This document shows positions 5,395 to 60,882 of a stretch of DNA of 64,000 bases, piece after piece (within the stretch, counting starts at the first letter, position 1; every line of letters begins with the position of its first letter). The position numbers were made by a program, and so were the translations under genes. Under the pieces are notes generated by a model. That model had not been told where the DNA came from. It did no database searches and was given only the letters and a program-made list of their open reading frames with translations. Source of the DNA: an uncultured Clostridia bacterium (GTDB lineage: Bacteria > Bacillota > Limnochordia > Darwinibacteriales > DTU012); assembly GCA_900019385.1 (NCBI GenBank), contig FIZJ01000006.1:94593-158592 (forward strand), in the 5' to 3' direction.

Positions 5395-5410
5395 TATGGG
5401 AGGGCGAGCT

Positions 5411-39465: not shown

Positions 39466-40227
39466 GTGAAAATGAGCAATCTGACAATCAGCTTTCACGA
39501 CTATCCTATCCTGCCTGATCATGAAGTGCGCAGGCTGCTGAAGGAAGCCCAATCCGGCAGCGATGCAGCAAGGCAGAAATTGGTGGAATGCAACCTACGC
39601 CTGGTAAGAAGCATAGTGATGAGGTTCGCCCACCGGGATGCGGAAATGGACGATTTGTTTCAAATAGGGTGTATCGGCCTGATCAAGGCGATTGACGATT
39701 TCGATCTCAGTTATGATGTCAAGTTTTCCACTTACGCGGTACCGAAAATAATAGGAGAAATCAAACGTTATCTAAGGGAAGCGTCGCCAATGAAAATATC
39801 ACGTTCACTGCGGGAACTGGCCAGCCGAGCCTTGGCTGTCAAGGACAATCTTGCCAGCGAACTGGGCCGTCCGCCGCTGATTGGTGAAATTGCCGGTGAA
39901 CTGGGCGTTTCAAAGGAAGAGTTGATTGCGGCGCTGGAGGCGGTTGCCCCTGTAATGTCACTGCAGCAGGTAATCCTGGAGGATGAAGGGGAAGGTGTAA
40001 GACTTGAGGCTCAGATAGGCAGCGAACCGGACGGTGACGCACTTTACCTGAAAGATGTTTTGCAAAGCCTGGAACCGGATGAGCGGCGACTGCTTTTACT
40101 CCGCTATTTTGCGGAACAAAGCCAGGTGGAAGTGGCTAAAATTTTTGGTGTTTCCCAGGCGCACATATCGCGGATCGAAAAACGAATCCTGAACGAGCTA
40201 CGAAACAAACTTGAGACGAAGGGATGA
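39466..40227 (+). CDS. sigF: Sporulation sigma factor SigF
   Basis: Sigma-70 regions 2-4. ..RLVRSIVMRF.., DLFQIGCIGLIKAIDDFD, and an HTH in region 4. Confidence 0.92.
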   Translation: MKMSNLTISFHDYPILPDHEVRRLLKEAQSGSDAARQKLVECNLRLVRSIVMRFAHRDAEMDDLFQIGCIGLIKAIDDFDLSYDVKFSTYAVPKIIGEIKRYLREASPMKISRSLRELASRALAVKDNLASELGRPPLIGEIAGELGVSKEELIAALEAVAPVMSLQQVILEDEGEGVRLEAQIGSEPDGDALYLKDVLQSLEPDERRLLLLRYFAEQSQVEVAKIFGVSQAHISRIEKRILNELRNKLETKG

Positions 40228-41051
40228 TCTTTCGAGTGCCGGCAGATTTGCATTTACACACCACCGCATCCGACGGGACATGGAGTTTGCCTGAAGTGAT
40301 CAACATGGCTGAAGCATGCGGATTGACAACGATCTCCATTACAGATCACGACACAGTCGATGCTTTAACAACTTTATCGACATCACACACCGGCCTGGAG
40401 ATCATCGCGGGCATTGAATTCGGTACTGAATATTCAAGTCACGAAGTCCATATTCTTGGTTACGGCATAGATATTAGCAATCGGGCACTGCTGAAGACTC
40501 TTGAAACGCTTAAAGCAGAGCGCGAGTCCCGAGCCCGGGCCATGGTGGAACGCCTTAATGAACTCGGCTGCAGTATCACTTTCAGCCGTGTCAAAGAATT
40601 GGCCGGCCCTGGAACCATTGGGCGTGTCCATATCGCCCAAGCCTTAATGGGAGCTGGTTATACTCAAAGTGTCAGGGAAGGGTTCAGCCGATATTTGGAG
40701 ATCAACGGGCCTGCGTATGTGCCGCGGAAGAAACTTACCATCAGGAACGCCATCGAACTGATCAAAGGCGCGGGAGGTGTTCCGGTTTTGGCCCACCCAG
40801 GTCTGGTTGGTGATGATCAACTGGTAAAAGATGTCATCAACATGGGCGTGTTGGGCTTGGAAGTGATCCACTCCAGCCACGATCGTTGGCAAACTGGCAA
40901 ATACTATCGAATGGCTAGACAGATGCAGGTTGTCCCCACGGGAGGTTCTGACTGCCACGGCCCACAAGGCAAAGACAAAGCCCTGATCGGCAAATACGCC
41001 ATTCCCGACACCTGGGTGAGGGAACTGAAAGATCTGATGGCAGTTTCATGA
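40224..41051 (+). CDS. PHP-domain metal-dependent phosphoesterase
   Basis: DLHLHTTASDG...ISITDHDT PHP motifs. Overlaps the sigF stop. Confidence 0.8.
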   Translation: MIFRVPADLHLHTTASDGTWSLPEVINMAEACGLTTISITDHDTVDALTTLSTSHTGLEIIAGIEFGTEYSSHEVHILGYGIDISNRALLKTLETLKAERESRARAMVERLNELGCSITFSRVKELAGPGTIGRVHIAQALMGAGYTQSVREGFSRYLEINGPAYVPRKKLTIRNAIELIKGAGGVPVLAHPGLVGDDQLVKDVINMGVLGLEVIHSSHDRWQTGKYYRMARQMQVVPTGGSDCHGPQGKDKALIGKYAIPDTWVRELKDLMAVS

Positions 41052-41707: not shown

Positions 41708-41718
41708 CTTTTCTGGAA

Positions 41719-41746
41719 GCAAGCTGGGAATGCAGCTTGTTTTCTT
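41719..41746 (+). terminator. Intrinsic terminator after the GNAT gene
   Basis: CAAGCTG-ggaatg-CAGCTTG followed by TTTTCTT. Confidence 0.55.
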
Positions 41747-41891
41747 AATTTCTGCCGCCAATATTCCGGTATGTACCTCGAATGATTTAATTGTAACGAT
41801 AGCGAGGATTTTGTGGGATGAACAAGGATTTACGGCAATTGTGTCGAACACGTTCATTGTTAGTCCTGTAGACGATAATGGAGGGGTAGTA

Positions 41892-42506
41892 ATGGTTAAT
41901 ATCATCATCAGCGGCGGTCCGGTCATGATCCCATTGTTGCTGTGTTCTGTGGCTGCAGTAGCAATCGGATTGGAAAGACTGTGGTATCTGCTGCGCACAA
42001 GAGTTGACACTGAAGACTTGATGGAAGACATTCAGCTGGCGTTGGGGCAGGGCAAGGTGTTGGAAGCAATGCAAATAGCCAAGAAATCCCGAGGACCGGT
42101 TGCAGCTATCCTCTCCGGCGGAATCGCTTATTACGACAGGGACAAGCATGAGATCAAAGAAAGAATGCAGGAGATCGGCCGGTTGGAGATCTATAAGATG
42201 GAAAAACGGATGAACGTCCTCAACATGGTTGTCAGCATCGCCCCTCTGTTGGGCCTGTTGGGAACCGTAACCGGAATTATTGATGCTTTTAATGTCATGG
42301 GAGCGATGAGGGGCATCCATCAGCCTTCGGATATCAGCGCGGGCATCGCCGAGGCGCTGATTACCACCGCCGCCGGTTTGATGATCGCCATACCGACGAT
42401 GGCGTTGACAGTCTATTTGAACAGCATTATTGACCGCAATATCGCGGAGATGAACAGACGGTCAAACGAACTGCTTGAATTACTCAGTGCCAGGAGTGAG
42501 GAGTAA
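41892..42506 (+). CDS. exbB: MotA/TolQ/ExbB-family proton channel. The ORF opens at 41730; the start is ATG 41892 after a GGAGGGG RBS.
   Basis: 204 aa, three TM segments, TolQ/ExbB pattern (..IAPLLGLLGTVTGIIDAF...). Confidence 0.8.
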   Translation: MVNIIISGGPVMIPLLLCSVAAVAIGLERLWYLLRTRVDTEDLMEDIQLALGQGKVLEAMQIAKKSRGPVAAILSGGIAYYDRDKHEIKERMQEIGRLEIYKMEKRMNVLNMVVSIAPLLGLLGTVTGIIDAFNVMGAMRGIHQPSDISAGIAEALITTAAGLMIAIPTMALTVYLNSIIDRNIAEMNRRSNELLELLSARSEE

Positions 42507-42910
42507 TGGAGTTTAAACGCACGACCCGCGGCTCCGGAGGGCAACCCGACCTCGCGCCGATGATTGATGTGGTATTCCACCTGCTTATATTCTTTATGGC
42601 CTTCTCAGTGCTTTACCAGACTACTATGAGCATCGATGTGGAACTGCCCAAGGCAGTGAGCGGTTCCGACGTCCGTTCTGATAGGTTCGAAATCAGTGTG
42701 ACCAAAGACGGGCTTCTTTCTGTCAACAGGAAGATCGTCACCGCGGCAGAGATGGAGCAAGCCCTTAGAGAAGCGTTGGCTGTCAATCCTGATCTGCTTG
42801 TGCTGATCAAAGGCGACCGACGGGCGACAGTAGAACAGTTTGTCAGTGCCATGGATATTGTAGCGAAGCTGGGTGTGAACAATATTCACGTCGGTACACA
42901 AGAACCTTGA
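42506..42910 (+). CDS. exbD: ExbD/TolR-family protein
   Basis: 134 aa. N-terminal ..DLAPMIDVVFHLLIFFM.. single TM, with a periplasmic-type domain. The start overlaps the exbB stop (TAATG). Confidence 0.82.
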   Translation: MEFKRTTRGSGGQPDLAPMIDVVFHLLIFFMAFSVLYQTTMSIDVELPKAVSGSDVRSDRFEISVTKDGLLSVNRKIVTAAEMEQALREALAVNPDLLVLIKGDRRATVEQFVSAMDIVAKLGVNNIHVGTQEP

Positions 42911-42926
42911 TTAAAAGGTGGATTTT

Positions 42927-43967
42927 ATGATGTATTTCGGCGATCGAGAGAACAACAACCTCAATGTGTTCATTTTCCTGTCCCTGATCATCCACGCCGT
43001 TGTTTTCTGGGCGATTCCCGACTGGGGCAGTTTTTTCAGGTTCGGAGTTGAAGGTACGTCGCAAGGCGGCATGATCAGGGTTACATACGTGCAGAGCAGC
43101 ACCGCCGACGAACTTTCTCCGATTACTAATCCTGCCTCGACAACCAGTACTCCCCAGGTCGAACAACCTCGGCCGACAGAGGAACCTCCCAAGGAACATG
43201 CCGCTGCCATACCCGTCACTCCGGAGTCCCTTGACAGTATTTCACCACCGGTACGACCTCGGCCGCAGCCCGTGGAAATCTCGGAACCGGCTCCGCCGGT
43301 TGTCACCCAACCCCAACCGCAAGAACCGGAGGTTGAAATCGAGCCTGAACCGATCCGGAGCGAAATAGTCACCAGTGAAACAGGACGAGAGATCTACATT
43401 GAAGAAGAGGAGCCAGAAACTGAAGTTGAGCCCGTGATTGAACCGGTATCGACTGCCGAACCGGTTGATGAACCCCTCCACGCGGCTGATCCGGAGCCGG
43501 AGGCCCATGTACAGTCCGATGCCGAACCAGATGAAGGAGACACTGACGCTTCAGGCACTGGAACCGGCATCGTGGGAGATATTGAGGGAGGCTCCGGTTC
43601 TGTCCAAGAGTCAGGCCTGGGAGAAGCGGAAGCTGCGCCACCACCTCCTCCGCCCCCGGCAGCCAGTACCGTGATCAACATTAACGGCAACGGAGGCGTC
43701 GCATACCCGAAGGATTCGCAGGATGAGAAGTCTGAAGGAGTTGTACGGTTGGATGTGCTTGTAGGCATTGATGGTCGCGCTCAAGACGTGGTTGTTTTTA
43801 ATCCTTCAGGCGACCCACGCCTTGATCAGCAGGCCAGGCTCACATTCCTCAGGAATTGGGTGTTTCGCCCCTTGGACAAAACATATATTCTCACCATTGA
43901 TGTGATCTTTTCACTGGCAGATGGGCCAAGAGTCGAGCCGATCTCCATCCGTTGGGCAGAAGAGTAG
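42927..43967 (+). CDS. tonB: TonB-like energy transducer with an unusually long acidic Pro/Glu-rich linker
   Basis: N-terminal TM (VFIFLSLIIHAVVFWAI), about 190 aa P/E-rich spacer, and a C-terminal TonB_C-like domain (GVVRLDVLVGIDGRAQDVVVFNPSGDPRLDQQARLTFLRNWVFRP). Confidence 0.75.
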   Translation: MMYFGDRENNNLNVFIFLSLIIHAVVFWAIPDWGSFFRFGVEGTSQGGMIRVTYVQSSTADELSPITNPASTTSTPQVEQPRPTEEPPKEHAAAIPVTPESLDSISPPVRPRPQPVEISEPAPPVVTQPQPQEPEVEIEPEPIRSEIVTSETGREIYIEEEEPETEVEPVIEPVSTAEPVDEPLHAADPEPEAHVQSDAEPDEGDTDASGTGTGIVGDIEGGSGSVQESGLGEAEAAPPPPPPPAASTVININGNGGVAYPKDSQDEKSEGVVRLDVLVGIDGRAQDVVVFNPSGDPRLDQQARLTFLRNWVFRPLDKTYILTIDVIFSLADGPRVEPISIRWAEE

Positions 43968-43986
43968 CGAAGGGGGAGTGGATGCT

Positions 43987-46023
43987 GTGGCGGCGCCTTC
44001 AAGACAGGCGGTATGCATAATTGCAATTGTTTTGCTCTTTGCCGTATGTTCATTGTCCGCAGCGGCCCAGGAACAAAAGCCGAATCTGGAGATCGCCAAC
44101 GAGTATATCCGGATCATCATCAACACACTCGAGGAGAACATGGGAAGGTTTTCGGTAGGCACTACCGGAGGCGATCCCGACCGGATCGGCGATGAAAACC
44201 AACATTTGATATACGGCGGCGAAGAGCCTTGGACCTCGTACACCACTGTCCGTATCGGTAATCAAAACTGGGTGTACGGCAATCCCACCAACAGACGGGC
44301 CGGAAAAAACGGACTTTACGGACAAGTGGTCCAACCTCCCACTATTATCGACGACAAGTTGGTAAGCAGTTGGCAGCTGGGGCCTATTCTCGTCACCCAA
44401 ATCCTCAGTTTCACAAGGAGCATCACCTCCGGCTTGATGGATACTGCCAAAATCGAATATCATCTTGAGAACACGGATGTTGTCTCTCACATGGTCGGGC
44501 TCCGTTTGGTTCTTGATACCATGCTCGGCCAGAATGACGGCGCACCGTTCCGCCTTACAGATCGTGCTGTTCTGACAGACACAGTGTTCTACAGTCATGA
44601 AATGCCCGCGTTTTGGCAGGCGTTTGACTCCCTGTCCAATCCGCAAGTCATCTCCCAAGGGACATTGGCCGGCGGAGAAGTCACCCCTCCAAACCGCGTT
44701 TATTTCAGCAACTGGGGCAGTATTGTCGACGGCCTCTGGGACTTCAACTACCAGCCCGGGAGAGATTTCATGCGGGCCGGCGAGTTCGAGCTGGACAGCG
44801 CGATTGCTCTTTATTGGGATCAGCAGCCCCTGCGCCCCAATGAATCCCGTACATATGTCGCCTACTACGGGCTCGGCGGCGTGACAATCACTCCTGGTGA
44901 GCTTTCTGTCGCTCTGACTGCTCCATGGCAGGTGAAAGCGGATCAGCGGCACCGAGAGACATTTACCATTGTGGCTTATATTGAAAACACTGGCGAGGGC
45001 GAAGCCAGAGATGTCACTGCCACTCTGCGTCTTCCGGAAGGGCTTGAACTGCTGAACGCCGGGGACAGTCTCCAGCGCCGTTACGGAAATCTCGCAGTCG
45101 GTGAGACCTATCAGACAAGCTGGCAGGTAATCCCTAACGGGGCTGTTTCCGGGGATGTCAGCTTTGAAGTGTTGGTGGAAGCCACCAACAGCGAATCGAG
45201 CTTGGCAAAGCGCAGTGTGCAGATTGTCAAACCAGACTATTTGGAAATAGACCTGATTGGTCCGTTGTTCTTGTCTGTAGAGAACGAACGCCTGTCGCCA
45301 CTACCGATGGAAGTCATGGCAAAGGTCACCAACACAGGTGGGGCGACGGCATATAATGTGGAAGCAGTGCTGCACCATCCCTTGATCAGACTGGCCAGGG
45401 GCGATGTGCCCGTCAAACGCCTCGGCTCGATTGCTCCGAATGATGCGGTGACTGTCACATGGTATTTGGATCCTACGGGGATATCCGGACAACTGGTCTA
45501 CTACCTTGACGTGATTTCGGATACGGACAGATATGCTTCGAACCGGAACGAAGTGTTTATCCCGTATATCGAGCCGAAGGTTTTTGTCGGCGAGCCTCAA
45601 ACCTCGCAAGGCAGAGTAGCCGCAGGCCAGTATTTCTCCATATCGGTCTGGGCAACCAACATACCAGATTTTCGCAAAGCTGTGTTAGAAGTGAACTATG
45701 ACCCACAGTACCTGGAGATCGTCGGCCGTTCGTTGGACATTACCCGAGGCACATTGTTTGTAGACCCTGATCCCGAACAATCCTTACTGCTTAAATGGGA
45801 TATTCCTCTGGTGGACAACCTGAGGGGAGTGGTGTCGGGCATTTCCGGTGATCGCGGCAGCATGCAGTCATCCGATTCCGCGTTCGGGACTTTGATCACC
45901 ATCCATTTCCGGGCTAAAAAGAGCGGAATCACCCGAATCGGACTCAGCAATGTGGCAGTATTTGACAGCAAATTGATTCCCATCGATGTTCGGGTCATCG
46001 ACAGAGATATTGTGATTGAATAA
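43987..46023 (+). CDS. Secreted cell-surface protein of about 680 aa, a candidate for CARDB-like and cohesin-like beta-sandwich domains. The ORF opens at 43921 inside tonB; the likely start is GTG 43987 after a GGGGGAG RBS.
   Basis: Signal peptide AAPSRQAVCIIAIVLLFAVCSLSAAAQE. Beta-rich throughout. Segments such as NTGEGEARDVTATLRLPEGLEL (CARDB-like) and a C-terminal VLEVNYDPQYLEIV (cohesin-like). Confidence 0.6.
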   Translation: MAAPSRQAVCIIAIVLLFAVCSLSAAAQEQKPNLEIANEYIRIIINTLEENMGRFSVGTTGGDPDRIGDENQHLIYGGEEPWTSYTTVRIGNQNWVYGNPTNRRAGKNGLYGQVVQPPTIIDDKLVSSWQLGPILVTQILSFTRSITSGLMDTAKIEYHLENTDVVSHMVGLRLVLDTMLGQNDGAPFRLTDRAVLTDTVFYSHEMPAFWQAFDSLSNPQVISQGTLAGGEVTPPNRVYFSNWGSIVDGLWDFNYQPGRDFMRAGEFELDSAIALYWDQQPLRPNESRTYVAYYGLGGVTITPGELSVALTAPWQVKADQRHRETFTIVAYIENTGEGEARDVTATLRLPEGLELLNAGDSLQRRYGNLAVGETYQTSWQVIPNGAVSGDVSFEVLVEATNSESSLAKRSVQIVKPDYLEIDLIGPLFLSVENERLSPLPMEVMAKVTNTGGATAYNVEAVLHHPLIRLARGDVPVKRLGSIAPNDAVTVTWYLDPTGISGQLVYYLDVISDTDRYASNRNEVFIPYIEPKVFVGEPQTSQGRVAAGQYFSISVWATNIPDFRKAVLEVNYDPQYLEIVGRSLDITRGTLFVDPDPEQSLLLKWDIPLVDNLRGVVSGISGDRGSMQSSDSAFGTLITIHFRAKKSGITRIGLSNVAVFDSKLIPIDVRVIDRDIVIE

Positions 46024-46042
46024 TGTTAAGGGAGGAAACTTG

Positions 46043-47348
46043 GATGAAGGGGTCGCGTATCTTATGTGGAGTGCTTGCGCTGATCTTGCTGTTCGGAAGT
46101 TTATCTCAACCTGTTCTTGCCAGTGTTAAAGATGTGCCCCCAGACCACTGGGCCTATCAGGCGGTTGTTTCCCTTGTAAACCGCGGGTTTTTATCGACAT
46201 ATGAAGACGGCAGCTTCCAAGGAACCAATTCAGTGGACCGCTACACGCTGGCGGTAACAGTAGCCAGGATTCTGGATGAAATCGAGGCAGGCCGGATCAT
46301 AGGCTCCCAAAGCGATGCCGAGTTATTGCGTGAACTAACCACTGAGTTCCGGGCTGAACTTGTGCAGTTTTATGCTGACAAACAGCGACTGGAGAGTGCG
46401 GTCGCCGAAACTCAGAAACTCGGATTGGCCACCGAAGAGCGCCTGAACAACGTCGTGGCCGGCCAAGTGCAGCTCAGCGATGAAGTCGCCAAAATCAAAG
46501 CGGATCTAATGCAAGAAGCGAACAAGACTTCCGAAGCATTGGCTGAGCTTAAGGCATCCATCGATGAGCAGAGGGCTGCAGTTCAAGCTCTTCAGGAACT
46601 GCTCGACACTCGTCAATCGCAGCTGTCAGGCCAAGTCACAGATCAAGGCGATCGCCTGGAGCAACTGCAGAGTGCTTTGATTAAGATTGACCAAAACCTG
46701 ATGCTGCAGCAGAGCGATATTGATCGGATCTTCAACTGGATTGCCGAAAAGGATTTGATCTTCTCCATGCTCGTCTTCGACGAAGAGCTTGAGCAATCCA
46801 TCAATGAACTGTCCGACGCGATTGCATCTTTGAACAAAGATCACGGCTCGGAAATAAATGATCTGCAAAACCGACTGGATAGCCTGATCGCCGCTGTGGC
46901 GAAAGCGGACGGGGAAATGGTCCGCACTCAGGAACAGTTTAAAATCCAGTTGGAGAGCTTGAGCCAGCGCAATCTCGAGGTTAAGAACGAACTTGAGCAG
47001 CTGACATCGCTTTTGGCACAAGAACGGCAAGAGCGGGCCGCTGTGGACAGCGAGTACAATACAGCGCTGAAGGAACTTGAGGCTCAAGTGCAGTATCTGT
47101 CCACCCAGGTTGGTATTTCTGAAGAGGAGTTGGCATCTCTTAACAAGCGCATCTCCGAAGAGATTGCTGTGCAGATGAATGCAGCCTTGATACGGGAACG
47201 GAGCTTGTCCAGTACTGTCGCAGAACTACAAGCGGAGTTCGACAGCTACAAACTAACGGCAGAGAAAGAAATCAAATCGGCCAAAAACACAGCTATGATC
47301 GCGATTGCAGCCGCCGTTATCAGTGTGCTGATCGGATTTGTGAAATAG
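46043..47348 (+). CDS. SLH-domain protein with a long coiled-coil and a C-terminal TM anchor
   Basis: Signal peptide. SLH motif VKDVPPDHWAYQAVVSLVNRGF. About 330 aa of heptad-rich Q/E/L/A sequence. C-terminal TAMIAIAAAVISVLIGFVK. Confidence 0.75.
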
Positions 47349-47367
47349 TGCCGTGTAACACTGATCG

Positions 47368-47406
47368 ACTCTAACCTACTTTGTGCAGTAGGTTAGAGTT
47401 TTTTAT
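47368..47406 (+). terminator. Strong intrinsic terminator after the SLH protein gene
   Basis: ACTCTAACCTACT-ttgtgc-AGTAGGTTAGAGT followed by TTTTTTATT. Confidence 0.75.
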
Positions 47407-47517
47407 TCCATATCCAGGTTATGACTTTCAAGTCCTTGCAGGGAAATATTGGATAATAATCGAATTATGAAGTACTTTGACAGACTACCTCAGTATTTCC
47501 GAAAGGAGTTTCCGTCC

Positions 47518-48030
47518 ATGGAAAGAGAATTAGCGGTAGAGAAGGAAATGCAGCTGGTTGTGTTCCGTCTTGCCAGTGAGGAATTTGCTTTTGAGATAAC
47601 TCAAGTGCGCGAGATCATAAAACCACCGAGCATTACAGTCCTTCCTCATGTGAGCGAGTATATAGAAGGAGTCACGAACATCCGCGGCGATATCATACCC
47701 ATCATCTCGCTGCGGAAACGCTTCAGTGTGCCCGAAGCCGAACGGACGCCTGAAACACGCGTGATTATCGTTGAATTTGATGAAACCAGTGTTGGGTTTG
47801 TGGTGGATGCCGTAACCGAAGTCATGCGGATTTCCGAAACTGCCGTCAAGTCTCCGCCCCGCACTGTCGCCGGGCTGCGCTCTGAATACTTGAAAGGTGT
47901 TGCGCAAGTTGAGGAACGCCTGATCATCCTGTTGGAGGTCGGTAAGATACTCAGTTCTGAAGAGCAGATCGAACTGAAGAACCTGGATAACGTCAGAAAC
48001 GAAATCGCAGGGACTGGAGAAACCAACTGA
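47518..48030 (+). CDS. cheW: Chemotaxis coupling protein CheW. The ORF opens at 47449; the start is ATG 47518 after a GAAAGGAG RBS.
   Basis: 170 aa, CheW-like domain (..LVVFRLASEEFAFEITQVREII..). Confidence 0.9.
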   Translation: MERELAVEKEMQLVVFRLASEEFAFEITQVREIIKPPSITVLPHVSEYIEGVTNIRGDIIPIISLRKRFSVPEAERTPETRVIIVEFDETSVGFVVDAVTEVMRISETAVKSPPRTVAGLRSEYLKGVAQVEERLIILLEVGKILSSEEQIELKNLDNVRNEIAGTGETN

Positions 48031-48042
48031 CTTTGCCGATAT
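48019..48042 (+). promoter_or_regulatory. Candidate sigma-28 (FliA/SigD) promoter element immediately after the cheW stop and upstream of fliM
   Basis: Exact -10 consensus GCCGATAT at 48035-48042. The upstream GAAA (48019-48022) is only a weak -35 at non-ideal 12-nt spacing. Confidence 0.3.
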
Positions 48043-48071
48043 AAAAAGTATAGGAGTGAGGTGAGGCAAAG

Positions 48072-49046
48072 ATGGAAGACATTCTCAGCCAGTCGGAGAT
48101 TGATCTGCTGATTAAAGCCACCCTCGAACCGGAAACGCTCGAGGCACCGTTGGAAAACATAGCAAGCGACCATTACGATTTTACCAAGCCCAACAAGTTC
48201 TCCAAGGATCAACTGCGGGGGCTGCAGAGAATTCACGAGCAGTTTTGCCGCGCCTATTCCGGGCTGATGTCAGCAAAATTCCGGACTAGGTTCAACCTGC
48301 AGTTTCAGACAATCGATCAACTGACCTTTGGCGAGTTTGTCCGTTCGCTGCCAAACCCATCAGTACTCAGTGTGTTTGAGGCATCACCGCTGCCGGGAAG
48401 TATTGTTGTGCAGCTGTCACCGGACAGTGCCTTTATTATGCACGACCGGTTGTGCGGCGGCCAAGGACATGTTTATGGGTTCTCCCGCGGATTGACCGAC
48501 ATAGAGATGGCCGTATTCAAACGACAGGTGATCGCCAGCTTTGCCAGGATTCTGAAAGACGCCTGGCAAGATATTGAAACAATTGATTTCAGATTGGAGC
48601 AGCTCGAAAGCAACCCTCAATTCTTGCAGCTGGCATCGGACAGAGATGTTGTTGTAGTGGTCAGCCTGCGCTTTGAGTTTAACGATGTCACAGACAACTT
48701 CAACATTTGCATACCGTTTCGCACTATTGAACCGCTGCTTTCCAAGATTACCCAGCACCGGTTGTTTGAGTCGCTGGCACCGCCGGATCCAGAGAAGATC
48801 GCTCAGCTTAAGGAGAAGGTCAAGACAGTGATCATCCCAATAGAGGTGGAACTTGGATCGGCTGCCGTAACTGCTGGTGATCTGTTGAGCCTGGAGGTTG
48901 GTGATGTGATCGAACTGGATCGTAAACGTACCGAGAATGTCGATGTGAGAATCGGCTCTCTGACCAAGTTCAAGGCGACCCCAGGCAAGCTGGGGGATAA
49001 GCTTGGAGTAGTGATTACATCCATTTGTGATGCACAAGAGGAGTAG
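48072..49046 (+). CDS. fliM: Flagellar motor switch protein FliM
   Basis: N-terminal CheY-P binding motif LSQSEIDLLI, and a CheC-like middle domain. Confidence 0.92.
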   Translation: MEDILSQSEIDLLIKATLEPETLEAPLENIASDHYDFTKPNKFSKDQLRGLQRIHEQFCRAYSGLMSAKFRTRFNLQFQTIDQLTFGEFVRSLPNPSVLSVFEASPLPGSIVVQLSPDSAFIMHDRLCGGQGHVYGFSRGLTDIEMAVFKRQVIASFARILKDAWQDIETIDFRLEQLESNPQFLQLASDRDVVVVVSLRFEFNDVTDNFNICIPFRTIEPLLSKITQHRLFESLAPPDPEKIAQLKEKVKTVIIPIEVELGSAAVTAGDLLSLEVGDVIELDRKRTENVDVRIGSLTKFKATPGKLGDKLGVVITSICDAQEE

Positions 49047-49050
49047 AAAA

Positions 49051-50106
49051 ATGAGTGGTGAACTGCTTAACCAAAATGAGATCGATGCTCTGGTGCGCGA
49101 TACTCAAGAAGGAGATATGGAAGGCTACCTGACCGAAGAGGAACGGGACACCCTGGCGGAAATTGGCAACATTTCCATGGGCAGTGCAGCTACAGCCCTA
49201 TCTTCGCTGATCAACAAAAAGGTTACCATAACTGTTCCTAATGTGCGGGTATCCACCTTGGCCGAGATTCAGAAGAGTTATCCCATTCCATGCATCGTCG
49301 TCAAGGTAGAGTATGTCGAAGGCCTGCAGGGGAACAATCTGTTGGTGATCAAGGAAAAAGACGCTTCGGTGATTGGCAATTTGATGATCGGGACGGATGA
49401 AAACGAGATTCCCGACGAGGTGGATGAACTGAGCCTCAGTGCCCTGACCGAAGCGATGAACGTGATGATGGGCTCGGCCGCCACATCCATGTCCGAGATG
49501 TTCAGGTACAAGATCAGTATCTCGCCCCCGGAGTCGTTCCGCCAAAACCTTGCCGAGAAGATCGATTATGTTGACAGTGAACGCTTGTATGCTGTCGTCG
49601 CATTCCGTTTCAACATTTTGAATATGGTCGACAGCGTGATGCTGCAGATTATCGATCTTGAATTCGCCAAGGCAATGGTATCACAACTCCTGGCTATTGA
49701 GGCTGAAAAAGCCGGCGCAGAAAGACCTGTGGAAACATCACAGCCCAGTGAGACCCCCAGAACTGAAATTGTTGATCGGGAGCCGATTGCTGCCACGCCA
49801 TGGTCCGATCTTGAGCAGGCGCCTGCACAGGCAGAAGACCTCGGCAACTTGAACATCGACTTGATCAAGGATATACCTGTCAACATCCGGGCCGTTCTGG
49901 GACGCACTCGCATGTCGATTGAGAACATCCTGAAGCTGGGGCCCGGCCATATCATGGAACTTGATACTCTTGAGGGAGAACCGATCGATGTGTACGCCAA
50001 CGACACCCTGATCGGACGCGGAGAAGTTGTAGTGGTAGGAGAGCAATTTGGCATCCGCATTACGGAAATCTCTACTCCCAAAAACCGGATCAAGAGTATC
50101 GGCTGA
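49051..50106 (+). CDS. fliY: Flagellar motor switch protein FliY (CheC-like phosphatase fused to FliN)
   Basis: N-terminal LLNQNEIDALV, CheC-like repeats, and a C-terminal FliN/SpoA domain (..NIRAVLGRTRMSIENILKL..). Confidence 0.9.
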   Translation: MSGELLNQNEIDALVRDTQEGDMEGYLTEEERDTLAEIGNISMGSAATALSSLINKKVTITVPNVRVSTLAEIQKSYPIPCIVVKVEYVEGLQGNNLLVIKEKDASVIGNLMIGTDENEIPDEVDELSLSALTEAMNVMMGSAATSMSEMFRYKISISPPESFRQNLAEKIDYVDSERLYAVVAFRFNILNMVDSVMLQIIDLEFAKAMVSQLLAIEAEKAGAERPVETSQPSETPRTEIVDREPIAATPWSDLEQAPAQAEDLGNLNIDLIKDIPVNIRAVLGRTRMSIENILKLGPGHIMELDTLEGEPIDVYANDTLIGRGEVVVVGEQFGIRITEISTPKNRIKSIG

Positions 50107-50132
50107 CGATTGGTGGAAGGGGGTAGCAGGAG

Positions 50133-52184
50133 TTGGACGCTTCTGAATTCAAAGATGTATTTGCCGCCGAAGCGCAAGAATACTTACAGGCTTTGAACAA
50201 AGACTTGCTGCGGCTGGAGAGCAATCCCGACGATCGGGGTGCTTTGAATGACATGTTCAGGGCAGCACACAGTCTTAAGGGTATGTCCAGCACTATGGGT
50301 TATCAGGAGCTTGCCGACTTCACGCATCAGATTGAAAGTGTGCTCGATCTTCTGCGTGTCGGCGAGCTGTCTGCCGATGAAAAGGTAGTCAACGTCCTGT
50401 TCAGAGCCTTTGACGATCTGCAGGTCTTGTTGGAGAAAACCTTACTTGATCAACCCTTGCCTGACTTGGAGGAGACCAAGGCCAAGCTTAGAGACCTGGT
50501 CATCAAACAGGATACTGTGGACATCGGCACTGAACTTGATGAGTCGGACGACAGTCCGTTAAAAATAGACGTTGAATTGGACGGCTATGATCGGGAAGTA
50601 TGCCAACAGGCTGCTGGTGAGGGTTACGCGCCATACAAGATTTTTATCACTTTGCGTCCCAAGACGCTCCTGAAATCGGTCCGTGTCTATACAGTGTTTC
50701 AGGCGTTGGAAAATCTCGGCACAATCATCAAATGCAATCCGTCCGCCCAAGACCTTGAAAACGAACAATTTGACCGAGACTTTGCAATCATTTTATTGAC
50801 TAAAGCTGACCAAAACACTATTAAACACACGGTGGAGAATATCTCTGAAATCGAAACAGTTTTCGTGGAACCAATCGAATTACGGGGTGGTGCTGCTGAA
50901 AAATCCCAAACATCTCGCGAAGTGGCTGCCGCTGCTGAAGAAGCAGCCTGTACAGAAGCTGAAGTAGGAGTCAAAGAGCAAGATCGAGTATTTCAGGGGT
51001 ACTCCCGTGGTGTCTATAGTGATCGCTTCATCCGTGTGGAAACGGACCGGCTTGACAGTCTTATCAATCTTGTGGGAGAACTGGTCATCAGCAAAACGCA
51101 GGTACTGGAAATCGACTCGGAGCTGCTAACCGACACTGCCCGCAACGCGCTCGTGCAGCTTGATCGGGTTACCACTGATCTTCAGTATGCGGCAATGAAG
51201 CTGCGGATGGTGCCGATTAAGCAGGTTTTCGACCGCTTCCCCAGGTTGGTTCGGGATTTGGCCCAGGCAGCGGGAAAGAACATCAATCTTGAGATTTATG
51301 GTGAAGATACTGAACTTGATCGTTCGCTTGTCAACCAGATCGGCGATCCGCTGGTGCATCTCATCCGGAACAGCATTGACCATGGGATCGAGACCGCTCA
51401 AAAGCGTTTGGCCGCCGGCAAACCTGCTCAAGCCACCTTGCGGCTCAGCGCGTTCCACGAAGGTGGCCACGTGATCATTCAAGTCTTTGATGACGGCCAG
51501 GGTTTAGTGCTGAGCCGCATCACCGAAATCGCCAGGGAACGTGGGCTCATTCCACCTGATTTCGACGGTGTGGTTACCATGGAACAGGCCATCGACCTGA
51601 TCTTCCAGCCTGGTTTCAGCACCAACGAGGTTGTCACTGATCTGTCGGGGCGCGGTGTGGGCATGGATGTAGTCAAGAGCATTGTCGAGGGATTGGGTGG
51701 ACATGTGGAGATCGAATCCAGCCCTGGGGAAGGAACATGTGTCACAATCAAACTGCCGCTTACTCTAGCGATCATCAAAGCACTGTTGATCAACTGCGGT
51801 AATCAGGTTTATGCATTACCGATCCAGTCAGTACGTGAAAACTTGTTGGTGACGCACTCTCAAATTAAGACCGTGTCCCAACAGAACGTGATTGTGCTGA
51901 GAAGTGAGATCCTCCCAATAGTCGATCTCGCTGAATCATTAGGATTTGCGCCTCAAGACCACGGAGACACTCTCACGGTTATTGTCGTGGAATCACATGG
52001 AGAAAAGGCAGGGTTTATCGTGGATGACATAATAGGGCAGCAGGAAATCGTGATCAAGTCGCTGTCCGATTTCCTCGGCAGCATTCGCGGTATTAGTGGT
52101 GCTACCGTGCTCGGTAACGGAGAAGTGGCACTGATATTGGATCACAACTCATTGATCAAAGGGAGGAATGATGTCGTTGGCTAA
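50133..52184 (+). CDS. cheA: Chemotaxis histidine kinase CheA
   Basis: HPt with HSLKG, and P2, dimerisation, HATPase (GRGVGMDVV) and CheW-like P5 domains. TTG start. Confidence 0.93.
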   Translation: MDASEFKDVFAAEAQEYLQALNKDLLRLESNPDDRGALNDMFRAAHSLKGMSSTMGYQELADFTHQIESVLDLLRVGELSADEKVVNVLFRAFDDLQVLLEKTLLDQPLPDLEETKAKLRDLVIKQDTVDIGTELDESDDSPLKIDVELDGYDREVCQQAAGEGYAPYKIFITLRPKTLLKSVRVYTVFQALENLGTIIKCNPSAQDLENEQFDRDFAIILLTKADQNTIKHTVENISEIETVFVEPIELRGGAAEKSQTSREVAAAAEEAACTEAEVGVKEQDRVFQGYSRGVYSDRFIRVETDRLDSLINLVGELVISKTQVLEIDSELLTDTARNALVQLDRVTTDLQYAAMKLRMVPIKQVFDRFPRLVRDLAQAAGKNINLEIYGEDTELDRSLVNQIGDPLVHLIRNSIDHGIETAQKRLAAGKPAQATLRLSAFHEGGHVIIQVFDDGQGLVLSRITEIARERGLIPPDFDGVVTMEQAIDLIFQPGFSTNEVVTDLSGRGVGMDVVKSIVEGLGGHVEIESSPGEGTCVTIKLPLTLAIIKALLINCGNQVYALPIQSVRENLLVTHSQIKTVSQQNVIVLRSEILPIVDLAESLGFAPQDHGDTLTVIVVESHGEKAGFIVDDIIGQQEIVIKSLSDFLGSIRGISGATVLGNGEVALILDHNSLIKGRNDVVG

Positions 52185-52539
52185 GACAGTCCTGATTACC
52201 GATGACACAGCATTTATGCGCATGACGCTGAGAAATGTTATACAGAAAAATGGATTCACTGTTGTAGGTGAGGCGGCTGACGGAGAAGAAGCCGTGAATA
52301 AATATAAAGAACTGCGGCCGGATCTGGTCACTATGGATATCACAATGCCCAAAATGGATGGGATAACCGCCATAAAAGAAATTGTAAAATTTGATCCCAA
52401 CGCCAGAATCATTGTTTGCAGCGCCATGGGCCAAAAACCGATGGTCATTGAAGCATTGAACGCCGGGGCCCGGGATTTCCTGGTTAAACCGTTCGACGCA
52501 CAGCGGGTAGTCGAGGCACTTCACAAGGCTTCTAGTTAG
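52168..52539 (+). CDS. cheY: Chemotaxis response regulator CheY
   Basis: 123-aa REC domain, D..D...DITMPKMDG...K. Confidence 0.92.
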   Translation: MMSLAKTVLITDDTAFMRMTLRNVIQKNGFTVVGEAADGEEAVNKYKELRPDLVTMDITMPKMDGITAIKEIVKFDPNARIIVCSAMGQKPMVIEALNAGARDFLVKPFDAQRVVEALHKASS

Positions 52540-52550
52540 GAGGTCTTACT

Positions 52551-53153
52551 GTGAAAGACAAACTGGATTTTTTGTCAGAGCTCGGCAATATTGGCGCAAG
52601 CTATGCCACAACAGCTCTGTCAAAAATGCTCCACGATGCCAAACTGAAGCTGACGGTACCGCAATCGCGCTTGCTCTCATTTAATGAAGCTGCCAACTAT
52701 ATTCCTGATCCGGAAGCTGTTGTTGTCTGTGTGTATATGCGGATGGTGGAAGGATTCGAAGCCAATATCGCTTTTATCCTGCCACTGAACAGCGCTGTTG
52801 CTTTGGCTGAGTATTTAACGTCCGAAAAATCGGACCATCTATCTGAATTGGGCCTGTCGGCACTGCTTGAGGTTGGCAATATTATGCTTAGTTCATATCT
52901 TACTGCATTGAGCATGCTGTCGGGAGCGAAACTTACACCTACTGTGCCGGGAATTGCTGTGGACATGAACGGCGCAATCTGGGAGAGCATTTTGGCGGAT
53001 GCCGGCATTACCGATTTTGTTACTGTCCTGGAAACGCATTTTTCCACTGACAATATGGAATTGTCAGGGAATTTATTTTTTATACCCGACCATGATCTGT
53101 ACGACTTTCTGTCACAAAAGGTTTCTGGTTTCTTGTTGGAGGAAAATACATGA
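52551..53153 (+). CDS. cheC: CheY-P phosphatase CheC
   Basis: 200 aa, two CheC repeats (..ELGNIGASYATTALS.. / ..EVGNIMLSSYLTALS..). Confidence 0.88.
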   Translation: MKDKLDFLSELGNIGASYATTALSKMLHDAKLKLTVPQSRLLSFNEAANYIPDPEAVVVCVYMRMVEGFEANIAFILPLNSAVALAEYLTSEKSDHLSELGLSALLEVGNIMLSSYLTALSMLSGAKLTPTVPGIAVDMNGAIWESILADAGITDFVTVLETHFSTDNMELSGNLFFIPDHDLYDFLSQKVSGFLLEENT

Positions 53154-53632
53154 ACGAGGTCTTCGTCAATATGGGTCAAATAGGGGTGTTAAGGAACAGC
53201 GGTGTTTTAGTGACAGTCGGGTTAGGTTCATGTGTCGGTGTTAGCCTTTATGATCCGAGTACGAAGGTGGGAGCGTTAGCCCATGTTTTTTTAGCTAAGA
53301 GTAGAGAAAACACCGACCGCGAAACCATACCCGGGAAATATGCAGATACTGCCATACCGGCCTTGATTGACATGGCTGTAAAAGCAGGGGCCAACAGGAA
53401 CAGATTTCAAGCCAAAATTGCAGGTGGTGCCCATCTTTTTGACAACTTTAAGTCCGACATGCCTCCTGTCGGACAGAAAAATGTCGAAGCGGTAATAGAA
53501 CAATTGAATAAATATAAGATACCCATAACTGGCAAAGATGTCTTTGGCAAACGGGGACGGAAAATGTCGCTATACGTTGATACAGGAATTGTAGTGGTTA
53601 CAACCATCGGTCAAGAATCGATCCAGATTTGA
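53150..53632 (+). CDS. cheD: Chemoreceptor glutamine deamidase CheD
   Basis: 160 aa, ..LGSCVGVSLYD.. catalytic Cys motif. Confidence 0.9.
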   Translation: MNEVFVNMGQIGVLRNSGVLVTVGLGSCVGVSLYDPSTKVGALAHVFLAKSRENTDRETIPGKYADTAIPALIDMAVKAGANRNRFQAKIAGGAHLFDNFKSDMPPVGQKNVEAVIEQLNKYKIPITGKDVFGKRGRKMSLYVDTGIVVVTTIGQESIQI

Positions 53633-53642
53633 GGTGGGCACA

Positions 53643-54689
53643 ATGGCAATCAGAGTCTTAGTTGTGGATGACAGCGCATTTATGCGCAAACTAATTTCCG
53701 AAATTCTCAACGAACAGCCGGACATCGAAGTGGTCAGCACAGCGCGGAACGGTCTTGATGCCCTGAAGAAGCTTGAGCGGTACCAGGTGGATGTCGTTAC
53801 GTTGGACCTGGAGATGCCGGTTTTGGACGGAGTGGCAACCATTGAGCGAATCATGGCCACCCATCTTATACCCATACTGGTGATCAGCAACTGGGCCGAA
53901 CGAAGCTTTGAAGCCACAATCAATGCCTTGTCCAAAGGCGCGGTTGACTTTATCGCCAAGCCATCCGGCACGATTTCGCTTGACTTGCGGAAAATAGGCG
54001 CTGAATTAGTAGACAAAGTCCGTTCGCTCGCAGGTGTGGTTGTTTCCAAACCTGTAACCCGTAAGGCTGCTCCCAGGCCGGTAATCCGGCCCCGGCAGAG
54101 GGTAAAAGCAAAGGCTGATGTCAGCGACGTAGTTGTGGTGATTGGTTCGTCCACAGGTGGGCCGAGGGCCCTGGAGGAGCTGTTTGTGCGGCTTCCGGAT
54201 GATCTGGGCGCCGGGATTCTGGTTGTGCAGCACATGCCTAAAAACTTTACCCGCAGTCTGGCCCAACGTTTGAACGCTCTTTCTCCATTGGAAGTCAAAG
54301 AAGCAGAAGAAGGCGACACGATCAGAAACGGCTTGGCACTGGTTGCGCCCGGTGATTATCATCTGGTTGTCGATCACAACAAACAAGTGAGGCTGAATCA
54401 AAACCCGCCTGTTAAGTATCTACGCCCATCGATCGATGTCACAATGCTCAGCCTGATCGATGTTTTTCAGAATCAGGTTGTCGGGGTTATTCTTACCGGA
54501 ATGGGCAACGACGGTTCCGAAGGCATGTCCGCTATCAAACGTACCGGCGGATACACCATTATTCAAGATGAGGCCACCGCGACGATTTTCAGCATGCCCA
54601 AGGCTGTTTTGGAGCAGGGAAATGCCGATCATATACTGCCAATTGATCAGATCGCTGATATGATTGTCGCTTTGGTGAACGAATTCTAG
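53643..54689 (+). CDS. cheB: Chemotaxis methylesterase CheB (REC plus methylesterase). GTG 53634 is an alternative start.
   Basis: N-terminal REC (VLVVDDSAFMR), and C-terminal esterase GSSTGGP...GMGNDG. Confidence 0.92.
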   Translation: MAIRVLVVDDSAFMRKLISEILNEQPDIEVVSTARNGLDALKKLERYQVDVVTLDLEMPVLDGVATIERIMATHLIPILVISNWAERSFEATINALSKGAVDFIAKPSGTISLDLRKIGAELVDKVRSLAGVVVSKPVTRKAAPRPVIRPRQRVKAKADVSDVVVVIGSSTGGPRALEELFVRLPDDLGAGILVVQHMPKNFTRSLAQRLNALSPLEVKEAEEGDTIRNGLALVAPGDYHLVVDHNKQVRLNQNPPVKYLRPSIDVTMLSLIDVFQNQVVGVILTGMGNDGSEGMSAIKRTGGYTIIQDEATATIFSMPKAVLEQGNADHILPIDQIADMIVALVNEF

Positions 54690-54704
54690 TGGAGGATCGC
54701 ACGC

Positions 54705-55463
54705 ATGGATTATGAAGTCTTTAAAGCCAAAGTCCGCGACCTGATCCAGCTAGATCTGAGTTCTTACAAACAGCAGCAGATGAAGCGCCGAATCCTGCAG
54801 TGGATTGCCCGTCATGAACTGAACGATTTTTCAGGGCTTTTTAATACACTGAAAACTGACGCAGATCACCGCCGCGAATTCATCGACTATTTGACAATCA
54901 ATACGTCCCACTTTTTCCGCGATCAAGGTGTTTTTGACTATCTTGCAGAAAAAATCCTACCGGCAATCGCTTCTTCGCAAGCGCGGATCTGGAGCGCAGG
55001 ATGCTCCATAGGCGCTGAACCATACTCTATAGCCATGATCATGCTGGACAAAAAGCTTCCTTTTGCTGAGATAATCGCCACAGACATCGACGAAGACAGT
55101 CTTAAGAGAGCAGCGGCAGGCGTCTATTATCCCAATCAAGTGAGCCAAGTGCCCACCAGCCTGCTGGAGCGCTATTTTACCACGGGAAAAGATCACTACC
55201 AGCTCAAAGAAATCGTCAAGCGGCAGGTCAAGTTTCTAAAGCACAACCTTTTGACCGATCCGTACCATAAAGGTTTTGATCTTATTCTCTGCCGCAATGT
55301 ATTCATCTATTTCACCAGCGAGATTCAAAACCGTTTGATCAAGCAGTTTGTCGCGTCTCTGAAACAAGGTGGGTATTTTGTTGTCGGTTCGGCCGAATTG
55401 ATTATTAACCCGGCCGTGTATGGATTGGATCGGGTAAGTTACTGCATCTACCAAAAAGGTTAA
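54705..55463 (+). CDS. cheR: Chemotaxis methyltransferase CheR
   Basis: SAM-dependent MTase with the CheR N-terminal helical domain, and ..IWSAGCSIGAEPYS... Confidence 0.9.
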   Translation: MDYEVFKAKVRDLIQLDLSSYKQQQMKRRILQWIARHELNDFSGLFNTLKTDADHRREFIDYLTINTSHFFRDQGVFDYLAEKILPAIASSQARIWSAGCSIGAEPYSIAMIMLDKKLPFAEIIATDIDEDSLKRAAAGVYYPNQVSQVPTSLLERYFTTGKDHYQLKEIVKRQVKFLKHNLLTDPYHKGFDLILCRNVFIYFTSEIQNRLIKQFVASLKQGGYFVVGSAELIINPAVYGLDRVSYCIYQKG

Positions 55464-55485
55464 TTTGGTTAAGGATGTGCTGCCA

Positions 55486-60528: not shown

Positions 60529-60882
60529 ATGTGGATTGACAAAAACCGGACCTTGATTCTTGACCGCAACATCGATACATGGCAGCTGCCCTTGGTTGCC
60601 GCTTCCGGTTCTTACCTGGGCAATGTTGTTGCGGAAGTGATCGAACCCAGGGCCTACATGGTCAGGTATTTTGTAGTTTTTGATCCAAATGCTCAGCGCA
60701 GGTTCCTGCTGCCATCCGAGTTGGTCACTGACATTGATGACAAGATTTTTTGTGATATCAACCCCAGCCAAACGGCACTGCTGCCCGAATACCACCAACG
60801 CATCGATCGCAGCCACGAACGGCGGATCTATCAAATCCTCAACCGCACTCCTTACTGGGAAGAGTCAAACACTGACGGCTAA
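60529..60882 (+). CDS. Hypothetical small protein (117 aa), possibly PRC-barrel-like. It occupies the slot between miaB and mutS.
   Basis: Strong AAAGGAGGAA RBS. Beta-rich. No confident family assignment. Confidence 0.5.
   Translation: MWIDKNRTLILDRNIDTWQLPLVAASGSYLGNVVAEVIEPRAYMVRYFVVFDPNAQRRFLLPSELVTDIDDKIFCDINPSQTALLPEYHQRIDRSHERRIYQILNRTPYWEESNTDG

Follow-up and report, generated by a model that had tools for sequence, protein, structure and literature searches.

A single-SLH coiled-coil protein encoded with a Ton/Tol-class motor in a Limnochordia bacterium, a candidate Ompα-type envelope tether

Introduction

To which membrane is a secreted protein with one wall-binding SLH domain, a very long coiled coil and an apolar C-terminal helix fastened, and why is it encoded next to a proton motor? 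The question is raised by a gene at positions 46044–47348 of a 64,000-nucleotide stretch of contig FIZJ01000006.1 (assembly GCA_900019385.1), the whole of which is called the window below. The DNA belongs to a diderm Firmicute of the Limnochordia, and the protein encoded next to the gene shows 100% identity with a protein of a Limnochordia metagenome-assembled genome. The gene product, here called the tether, consists of four parts, a Sec signal peptide, one SLH domain, a coiled coil and an apolar C-terminus; all four modules named in the initial annotation (signal peptide, SLH domain, heptad region and C-terminal apolar helix) are real.

Our reading, to which we give a probability of about 0.55, is that the gene encodes an Ompα-type envelope tether coupled, on the wall-to-membrane connection, with the motor and with the secreted protein X700, both encoded in the same operon. 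Current accounts recognise one tether in diderm Firmicutes (OmpM), restrict Tol-Pal to the Gracilicutes and regard the helical Ompα as a peculiarity of Thermotogae and sister phyla. The picture suggested here is a different one: an Ompα-type tether appears to be widespread in Limnochordia and Halanaerobiales, and genetically hard-wired to a Ton/Tol-class proton motor and to X700, a conserved and predicted glycan-binding protein.

Gene structure and relatives

46044–47348, forward strand: coding sequence of the tether, 434 amino acids (aa) and a TAG stop codon
46027–46036, forward strand: Shine-Dalgarno sequence AAGGGAGGAA of the tether gene, found by sequence inspection

The open reading frame (ORF) listed for the tether spans positions 46023–47348 of the forward strand and encodes 441 aa. 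The coding sequence was placed at 46044–47348 because the ATG at 46044 lies 7 nt past the strong Shine-Dalgarno sequence, because the upstream X700 gene ends with a TAA at 46021–46023, and because the identical protein in public contigs has also been called as 434 aa by gene callers. The boundaries given in the initial annotation, 46043–47348, were thus right at the end and one base off at the start. Residue numbers below refer to the 434-aa protein unless the 441-aa ORF is named. The protein has a size of about 47 kDa, and the public assembly index contains its exact sequence in 285 blocks.

The search for homologs yielded 78 proteins, all from assemblies named 'Firmicutes bacterium' or assigned to Limnochordia. 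They have in common a signal peptide (78/78), an SLH domain with the motif DVPxDHWAY, a helical middle part of variable length and a terminal apolar run.

Signal peptide and SLH domain

46044–46121, forward strand: Sec (signal peptidase I) signal peptide, residues 1–26, cut after VLA; conserved in the family and without a lipobox
46122–46307, forward strand: single OmpM/SlpA-type SLH domain, residues 27–88, from Pfam, phmmer, NCBIfam, hhalign and alignment

The signal peptide MKGSRILCGVLALILLFGSLSQPVLA, followed by SV at the cut, includes a basic n-region, an apolar h-region and an AxA-type site. The family alignment did not contain a conserved lipobox Cys at the signal peptide. As the protein carries a cleavable signal peptide, the term 'tail-anchored' used for it earlier is a misnomer.

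Pfam PF00395 detected one SLH stretch in the tether, residues 36–73 of the 441-aa ORF, with an E-value of 8e-4 and 19.7 bits, slightly below the gathering score of the family (20.8). The other methods gave clearly stronger matches. In phmmer searches against PDB sequences, residues 24–219 of the 441-aa ORF matched Deinococcus radiodurans SlpA (3.4e-13) and residues 31–136 matched the Veillonella-type OmpM chains 8bys and 8bym (about 1e-10 to 2.5e-10), while the NCBIfam model por_somb, built for cyanobacterial SLH-porins, matched at 3e-13 and hhalign against Thermosipho Ompα gave 5.5e-19. Judged from these matches, the SLH domain of the tether is homologous to that of OmpM and SlpA. The single SLH motif proposed earlier was thus recovered marginally by Pfam and solidly by phmmer, NCBIfam and hhalign.

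Three tandem SLH repeats, as in classical S-layer and wall proteins, were not found in the tether, Pfam giving one stretch only. Such three-SLH proteins, with which the tether had first been contrasted, are in fact the wrong comparison, since OmpM and SlpA normally carry one SLH on a trimeric stalk (PMC10628300).

Alignment A1 (34 sequences) showed H35, W36, A37 and G60 to be invariant in the SLH domain, and Y38, R66 and Y67 nearly so. The conserved Arg is part of DRYT, which corresponds to the TRAE/TRYE motif by which SLH domains that bind secondary cell-wall polymer contact pyruvate. Two Tyr are counterparts of Y36 and Y65 of VpOmpM1, which have been linked to polyamine-modified peptidoglycan (PMC10628300). 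Because both the pyruvate-type Arg and the polyamine-linked Tyr are kept, the sequence does not allow the ligand to be called, and the pyruvylated wall polymer named in the initial annotation is only one candidate. The csaB family (PS_pyruv_trans) was absent among the about 60 window ORFs scanned.

A precomputed PF00395 match was present in only about one fourth of the tether homologs. In published surveys Ompα/β have been assigned to Thermotogae, Bipolaricaulota and Fraserbacteria, and the diderm Firmicutes have been given OmpM; those surveys screened SLH domains at the Pfam gathering cut-off. Screening at that cut-off would miss the tether family because its SLH domain often scores below it, and the family was probably missed for this reason, its SLH falling just under the threshold.

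Coiled-coil rod

46308–47282, forward strand: coiled-coil rod, residues 89–413, from periodicity, structure prediction, family alignment and heptad assignment

The rod is a heptad-periodic helix of about 325 aa in three segments, and Pro was not found in the tether beyond residue 33. The hydrophobic periodicity of 3.5 residues had a z-score of 7.3 globally and 9.8 in windows of 35 residues, values reached by none of the 2000 global and none of the 1000 local shuffles. In the heptad register, which has six discontinuities, 73% of the a/d positions were apolar vs 12% of the others. AlphaFold2 (AF2) with the family alignment (mean confidence score pLDDT 76) produced helices at residues 89–240, 248–355 and 360–433, separated by low-confidence breaks at 241–247 and 356–359, the third helix continuing into the C-terminal anchor. 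The periodicity, heptads and predicted helices all support the coiled coil of the initial annotation.

The description of this part as a rigid spacer is more doubtful. It is overstated because of the breaks, two of which are predicted beside the six heptad discontinuities, and rod length varies from 194 to 799 aa across the orthologs. The two longer helices comprise 73–316 and 39–207 residues among the relatives. The 60 aa that lead from the motif VG(I/L)SEEEL to the apolar run are of fixed length in nearly all relatives, and these membrane-proximal residues are conserved in sequence across the family; a further conserved motif, NWxxEK, is present in the middle of the rod. With a helix rise of about 0.148 nm per residue, the rod of the tether could reach about 48 nm if straight.

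The composition of the a/d core (a: L12 I7 V6; d: L20 V5 I5) does not distinguish between oligomer states. Foldseek comparison of the tether model with the PDB gave no significant match, as is expected for a long helix. A rod folded back as a hairpin was also considered and found unsupported: the lengths of helices 1 and 2, for which a 1:1 relation would be expected, were only loosely correlated (r = 0.74), the correlation being driven by outliers and many pairs disagreeing.

C-terminal anchor and its membrane

47289–47342, forward strand: C-terminal apolar helix, residues 416–433, TAMIAIAAAVISVLIGFV, with a KSAK flank before it and only K434 after it

The last 17–18 residues of the tether are apolar, with a high share of Ala, Gly and Ser. 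T416–V433 form a run of 18 uncharged residues, after which only K434 follows. The best 17-mer of the segment had a Kyte-Doolittle mean of 2.76 and a position-independent Hessa sum of -2.2 kcal/mol. An equivalent terminal run was present in every full-length relative. The transmembrane-like C-terminal segment noticed earlier is thereby borne out by its 18 apolar residues, by its hydrophobicity and by its family-wide occurrence. Furthermore, a small-xxx-small-xxx-small pattern, which suits tight packing of parallel helices, was found in the C-terminal helix of 47 of the 70 relatives.

The membrane entered by this helix could be either of two. If it were the cytoplasmic one, the helix would stay there as a type I anchor and the tether would link that membrane, and perhaps the ExbBD-like stator, to peptidoglycan, acting for the motor in trans as the wall anchor that MotB has as a domain in cis. 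Standard stop-transfer logic favours this, as do the length of the apolar run (17–18 residues), its Kyte-Doolittle value of 2.76 and its negative insertion estimate; the conserved 60 residues of fixed length would suit docking onto membrane partners that are themselves conserved, and three of the operon partners are cytoplasmic-membrane proteins. The distribution of charges is, however, inverted. Lys and Arg were more abundant in the periplasmic flank than in the tail in all of the 53 distinct relatives (53/53), the flank averaging 3.4 Lys/Arg per 12 aa and the tail 0.57, with a tail length of 0–6 aa (mean 1.3). A basic flank on the periplasmic side is the opposite of what the positive-inside rule predicts for an inner-membrane anchor with its N-terminus out and C-terminus in. 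Also the apolar runs of many Halanaerobiales orthologs, 13–15 residues without a tail, are short for a span of the cytoplasmic membrane, the rods of 15–100 nm far exceed any gap between membrane and wall, and the stalks of OmpM, SlpA and Ompα all point from the wall to the outer membrane. An anchor in the inner membrane consequently appears rather unlikely to us.

The outer membrane is the most likely site of the anchor, as suggested by the charge polarity, the short apolar runs and the precedent of Ompα, which in Thermosipho has the same kind of basic flank (VKTKS). This placement is also favoured by the five-gene block being confined, as sampled, to diderm lineages. In the characterised relatives OmpM, SlpA and Ompα, the stalks run from the wall to the outer membrane (PMC10160955, PMC10628300, PMC9388160). 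A tether between wall and membrane, as proposed in the initial annotation, remains the most economical reading; that proposal had named no membrane for the anchor.

The position of the segment at the extreme C-terminus and the short conserved KSAK motif before it would also suit a cleaved sorting signal of the LPXTG, PEP-CTERM or GlyGly-CTERM type, after the removal of which the rod would be covalently attached or released. Sorting signals of this kind would be expected to differ from what was found: no basic cluster follows the helix and often there is no tail at all, none of the NCBIfam CTERM-sorting models matched the C-termini of three representatives at E-values up to 10, and the block includes no sortase or exosortase gene. 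Cleavage is thus the least credible fate of the helix, and we consider it extremely improbable.

The operon and its conservation

41715–41744, forward strand: terminator-like hairpin that follows the GNAT gene and marks where the operon is bounded upstream; 12-bp stem with 5 GC pairs and a weak T-run, only suggestive
41892–42506, forward strand: ExbB/TolQ-like proton-channel subunit, 204 aa (Pfam MotA_ExbB, 6e-29)
42506–42910, forward strand: ExbD/TolR-like subunit, 134 aa (Pfam ExbD, 1.3e-25)
42918–43967, forward strand: TonB/TolA-class transducer, 349 aa (Pfam TonB_C, 3e-10; NCBIfam tonB_Cterm, 1.3e-8)
43978–46023, forward strand: X700, a secreted all-beta protein of 681 aa with a supersandwich, two CARDB/Ig domains and a C-terminal cohesin
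47367–47406, forward strand: strong intrinsic terminator, 19 nt past the tether stop and closing the operon downstream; 14-bp stem, then TTTTTAT

As far as can be read from the sequence, the tether gene closes a terminator-bounded operon of five genes in the order ExbB/TolQ-like, ExbD/TolR-like, TonB-like, X700 and tether. The junctions within the block overlap or are shorter than 25 nt, the ExbD-like start codon overlapping the ExbB-like stop. The ExbB-like ORF was listed with 258 aa and begins inside the upstream hairpin, its surplus part being 41730–41891; its true start is Met55 (41892), because the orthologs have been called at 204–205 aa.

The Pfam matches for ExbB, ExbD and TonB_C were all above the gathering scores, and the NCBIfam matches of the motor subunits were below the cut-offs. 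The channel subunit scored 91 bits with TolQ (cut-off 221) and 57 with ExbB, and its best PDB matches were TolQ (7.6e-11) and then ExbB. The ExbD/TolR-like subunit scored 55 bits with TolR (cut-off 127) and 41 with ExbD, matched ExbD (1.2e-6) and TolR (7e-6) in the PDB, and retains the transmembrane Asp (MIDVVF). In the transducer an N-terminal transmembrane segment, which carries the S-x3-H motif SLIIH, is joined by a linker rich in Pro and Glu to a TonB_C domain, and the match of this protein to PDB TonB was weak (0.009); the S-x3-H motif (SIILH) is present also in the TonB-like protein of Halanaerobium. X700 includes a conserved N-terminal domain of about 300 aa, for which a galactose-mutarotase-like supersandwich fold was indicated and no Pfam match was found. 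At least 580 homologs of X700 were detected; they are named 'cohesin domain-containing' or 'cellulosome anchor protein' in the databases, and their hosts are not cellulosomal.

Conservation of the gene order was analysed by tblastn of the window genes against 86 fetched loci (L numbers below). The five-gene block was colinear in about 65 of them, including Limnochordia, Hydrogenispora, Capillibacterium and Halanaerobiales, and is carried by the cultured Halanaerobium kushneri ATCC 700103 and Halanaerobaculum tunisiense. Identity of the tethers across the two classes was 28–45%, with the order of the five genes kept. The flanks differ: in Limnochordia the block is located between sigF-PHP-GNAT and (spoVA-)cheW, and in Halanaerobiales it is flanked by a histidine kinase, his genes, ndk, a SleB-like hydrolase or gyrA. 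When the lookup was started from X700 instead, a gene for a protein with signal peptide, SLH, coiled coil and apolar tail was directly downstream in both loci (2/2), and X700 was never adjacent to those SLH matches in the fetched loci that end in F or W, as OmpM-type barrels do. The initial annotation had connected the tether to the ExbBD/TonB genes by adjacency; the terminator-like hairpins at the edges and the colinearity of about 65 loci in two classes despite changing flanks make this connection much stronger.

These data bear on two further explanations. According to the first, the tether is independent and merely stands beside an ordinary Ton system, the motor of which serves TonB-dependent transporters encoded elsewhere. 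The motor and transducer do match only generic Ton/Tol families, but a linkage without mechanistic meaning is difficult to combine with a gene order kept across two classes at 28–45% tether identity while the flanks change, with tight junctions and terminators only at the ends, with an SLH-coiled-coil-anchor gene following X700 when this is examined from its own side (2/2 loci), or with the report that Ton systems were undetected in these two lineages (PMC12204202). We regard it as improbable. Among the window ORFs scanned there was no TonB-dependent transporter. Nutrient import of the Ton type is likewise unlikely to be the whole role of the block, because the same survey detected Ton, among diderm Firmicutes, only in Negativicutes (PMC12204202).

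The second explanation would make the protein an accessory of sporulation or of the flagellum, as the Limnochordia neighbours could suggest, with spoIIAA-spoIIAB-sigF upstream and spoVA or cheW-fliM downstream. The flanks in Halanaerobiales (histidine kinase, his genes, ndk, gyrA) are unrelated to either process, terminators separate the operon from both neighbours, and in many relatives spoVA is inserted between the tether and cheW. A specific role of this kind seems very improbable.

The lengths of the TonB-like protein and the rod were uncorrelated (rho 0.11). Because rod length does not track the length of the TonB-like protein, neither of the membrane models gains from a 'ruler' argument. 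A Zorya-like defence system was rejected, since the anti-phage library gave only a ZorA-class match of 0.008 for the channel subunit and none for the other proteins.

Surroundings of the operon

A gene for a 275-aa PHP-domain protein was met repeatedly a short way upstream of the motor genes, in Limnochordia as well as in Halanaerobiales: at 40224–41051 in the window, at 5130–5951 in L090, at 3797–4624 in L091, and also in L039 and L051. It ends 12 nt before ExbB in Halanaerobaculum and overlaps the sigF stop codon by 4 nt in the window, and might count as a sixth gene of the conserved neighbourhood. A cell-wall hydrolase of the SleB/CwlJ type (Pfam Hydrolase_2) is encoded just downstream of the tether in three loci of Halanaerobiales (L076, 10827–11417; L090, 10711–11286; L091, 11195–11794), and in L091 a SurA-like peptidyl-prolyl isomerase is found just upstream of the block (4642–5622). 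Many Limnochordia relatives have spoVAC-spoVAD-spoVAEB between tether and cheW (L004–L006, 11449–13284), and the window (47349–47448) and its closest relatives are without spoVA genes there.

A second, shorter class of proteins with SLH, coiled coil and apolar tail (249–273 aa), present in L083 and L073, has neither X700 nor motor genes with it. In L083 (9977–10726 and 11343–12593) the short tether follows an LptF/G-like permease, and two genes downstream there is a barrel-like protein of 416 aa ending in SIQF, an arrangement that resembles a split Ompα/Ompβ in a Firmicute.

Flagellar and chemotaxis genes form two blocks about 40 kb apart in the window. The blocks are located at 65–5106 and 47449–57459; one includes flhA, flhF, flhG, PilZ/YcgR and a sigD-like gene, and the other cheW, fliM, fliY, cheA, cheY, cheC, cheD, cheB, cheR and FapA. 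Between them are the housekeeping genes rpsB-tsf-pyrH-frr-uppS-cdsA-dxr-rseP-ispG-proS-polC-nusA-infB-pnp as well as spoIIM, a dacF-like gene, spoIIAA, spoIIAB, sigF and the tether operon. Two forward-strand ORFs without a Pfam match at E ≤ 1e-5 (58410–59015, 201 aa; 60529–60882, 117 aa) lie among genes for heptaprenyl diphosphate synthase component I, a miaB-like protein and mutS.

Proposed mechanism

After Sec export the tether would form a parallel trimer as in OmpM and SlpA, and its three SLH motifs would make up one wall-binding unit. This unit would hold peptidoglycan or a secondary polymer non-covalently, a ligand that may be pyruvylated or polyamine-modified. The segmented rod, at most about 48 nm when fully extended, would project from the wall, and the three C-terminal helices would bundle via small-xxx-small contacts and enter a membrane from the periplasm, likeliest the outer one, with the KSAK collar left on the periplasmic side. 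This connection between wall and membrane would then be acted on by the proton motor, by its TonB-like arm and by X700; they might position, load or release the tether. The logic would be comparable to that of TolQRA-TolB-Pal, though not the ancestry of all the parts.

Several observations weigh against this reading. An apolar helix after a signal peptide normally is a stop-transfer anchor in the cytoplasmic membrane, and the segment in the window, with its 18 apolar residues and negative insertion estimate, could be retained there; to our knowledge, no pathway is known that inserts helical anchors into outer membranes. For a spacer of fixed geometry it would be strange that the rod ranges between 194 and 799 aa in length, unrelated to the length of the TonB-like protein. 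The putative trimer is extrapolated from homologs. The similarity to Ompα is confined in BLASTP and hhalign to 62–66 SLH residues, which does not exclude common descent because coiled coils diverge quickly. X700, with its supersandwich, Ig and cohesin domains, is not TolB, as it has no six-bladed propeller. Finally, an OmpM-type tether co-exists with the operon in one genome bin (L074, L051), and the tether is therefore not the only one of its genome.

The five-gene block is possibly part of a Tol-Pal-like system. A bolder version, which we put forward tentatively and consider doubtful, is that the block forms an envelope-tethering machine driven by the proton motive force, a functional counterpart of Tol-Pal in Terrabacteria, in which the motor would pull via the TonB-like arm on X700, and X700 would load, move or release the tether. 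Such energised tethering might act at division sites or during growth of the outer membrane. If this were true, helical outer-membrane anchors would not be an oddity of Thermotogae but a wider and ancient Terrabacterial solution with an insertion route of its own. The locus is a concrete candidate for the coupling of energy to outer-membrane attachment, with the operon present in culturable species (H. kushneri and H. tunisiense), and it raises anew the question by which route a helical anchor gets to an outer membrane.

Comparison with known systems

The layout of the tether had been presented as a departure from known wall and envelope proteins, but it has a precedent: exactly this architecture is known from Thermotoga Ompα (PMC3387000, PMC9388160). 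What appears to be undescribed is the obligatory partnership of such a tether with a Ton/Tol-class motor and X700; a description of the five-gene operon, or of this protein type in Limnochordia, was not found in the literature.

The cellulosome-anchoring scaffoldins, which combine cohesins with C-terminal SLH repeats, likewise pair a cohesin with an SLH wall anchor. Here, unlike in the scaffoldins, the cohesin (X700) and the SLH (tether) are on separate polypeptides, the setting is periplasmic in diderm cells, there is a linkage to a proton motor, and no dockerin partner is evident. Braun lipoprotein (Lpp) resembles the tether, if this is a trimer as its homologs suggest, in being a trimeric coiled-coil rod that links the wall to a membrane. 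Lpp has 58 aa, an N-terminal lipid anchor and a covalent wall link via its C-terminal Lys, whereas the tether has the reversed polarity, non-covalent binding by SLH, a helix as its anchor and a rod about six times longer.

The block follows a Tol-Pal-like order of functional classes: channel, ExbD/TolR, TonB_C transducer, large secreted beta-protein and wall-binding protein. On TolQ/TolR the motor subunits reach scores no lower than on ExbB/ExbD, though all are below the equivalog cut-offs and the PDB ranking is mixed. The differences include the transducer linker, which is Pro/Glu-rich as in TonB and unlike Tol, the lack of CpoB in the block, and the wall-binding protein, Pal being an OmpA-like lipoprotein and the tether an SLH coiled coil without a lipobox. 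The likeness to TolQ-TolR-TolA-TolB-Pal is thus one of analogy, not of membership. A survey from 2025 detected Tol-Pal only in Gracilicutes and Ton, defined by tonB together with TonB-dependent transporters, among diderm Firmicutes only in Negativicutes (PMC12204202).

The OmpM/SlpA proteins, represented by Veillonella OmpM1 and D. radiodurans SlpA, are homologous to the tether in the SLH domain and the beginning of the stalk (residues 24–219 of the 441-aa ORF). They have one SLH per chain, as does the tether, which implies trimerisation, and their role as connectors between peptidoglycan and the outer membrane is the one proposed here for the tether. The C-terminal beta-barrel of OmpM is replaced in the tether by a single apolar helix: the AF2 model is all-helical at 89–433 and the protein ends in GFVK, whereas the OmpM-type proteins in other loci end in F or W. 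The rod is also much longer than the stalk of Veillonella OmpM.

Ompα of Thermotoga has an SLH domain at its N-terminus, a coiled coil of 316 aa and, at its C-terminus, about 20 hydrophobic residues as an anchor in the toga, i.e. the outer membrane (PMC3387000, PMC9388160). It is enriched in the toga, matches the 50-nm fibres that extend from peptidoglycan to the toga, and is predicted to form trimers (PMC10160955). Ompα (OmpA1, TM0477) of Thermotoga maritima and the tether have an identical order of modules and nearly the same dimensions, with coiled coils of 316 and about 325 aa and masses of 45 and about 47 kDa. The SLH domain of the tether is 48% identical to that of Thermosipho Ompα, and its anchor is of the Ompα style, a helix rich in Gly and Ala that has many Lys in its flank and a very short tail. 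In the Thermosipho locus the Ompα gene is followed by an Ompβ-like barrel gene; the tether has no Ompβ-type barrel gene adjacent to it, X700 being upstream and the terminator and then cheW downstream, although the Ompβ partner gene is variable even within Thermotogae. Unlike Ompα, the tether is encoded in an operon with a Ton/Tol-type motor and X700, occurs in a Firmicute host that has OmpM-type tethers as well, and has a rod of highly variable length.

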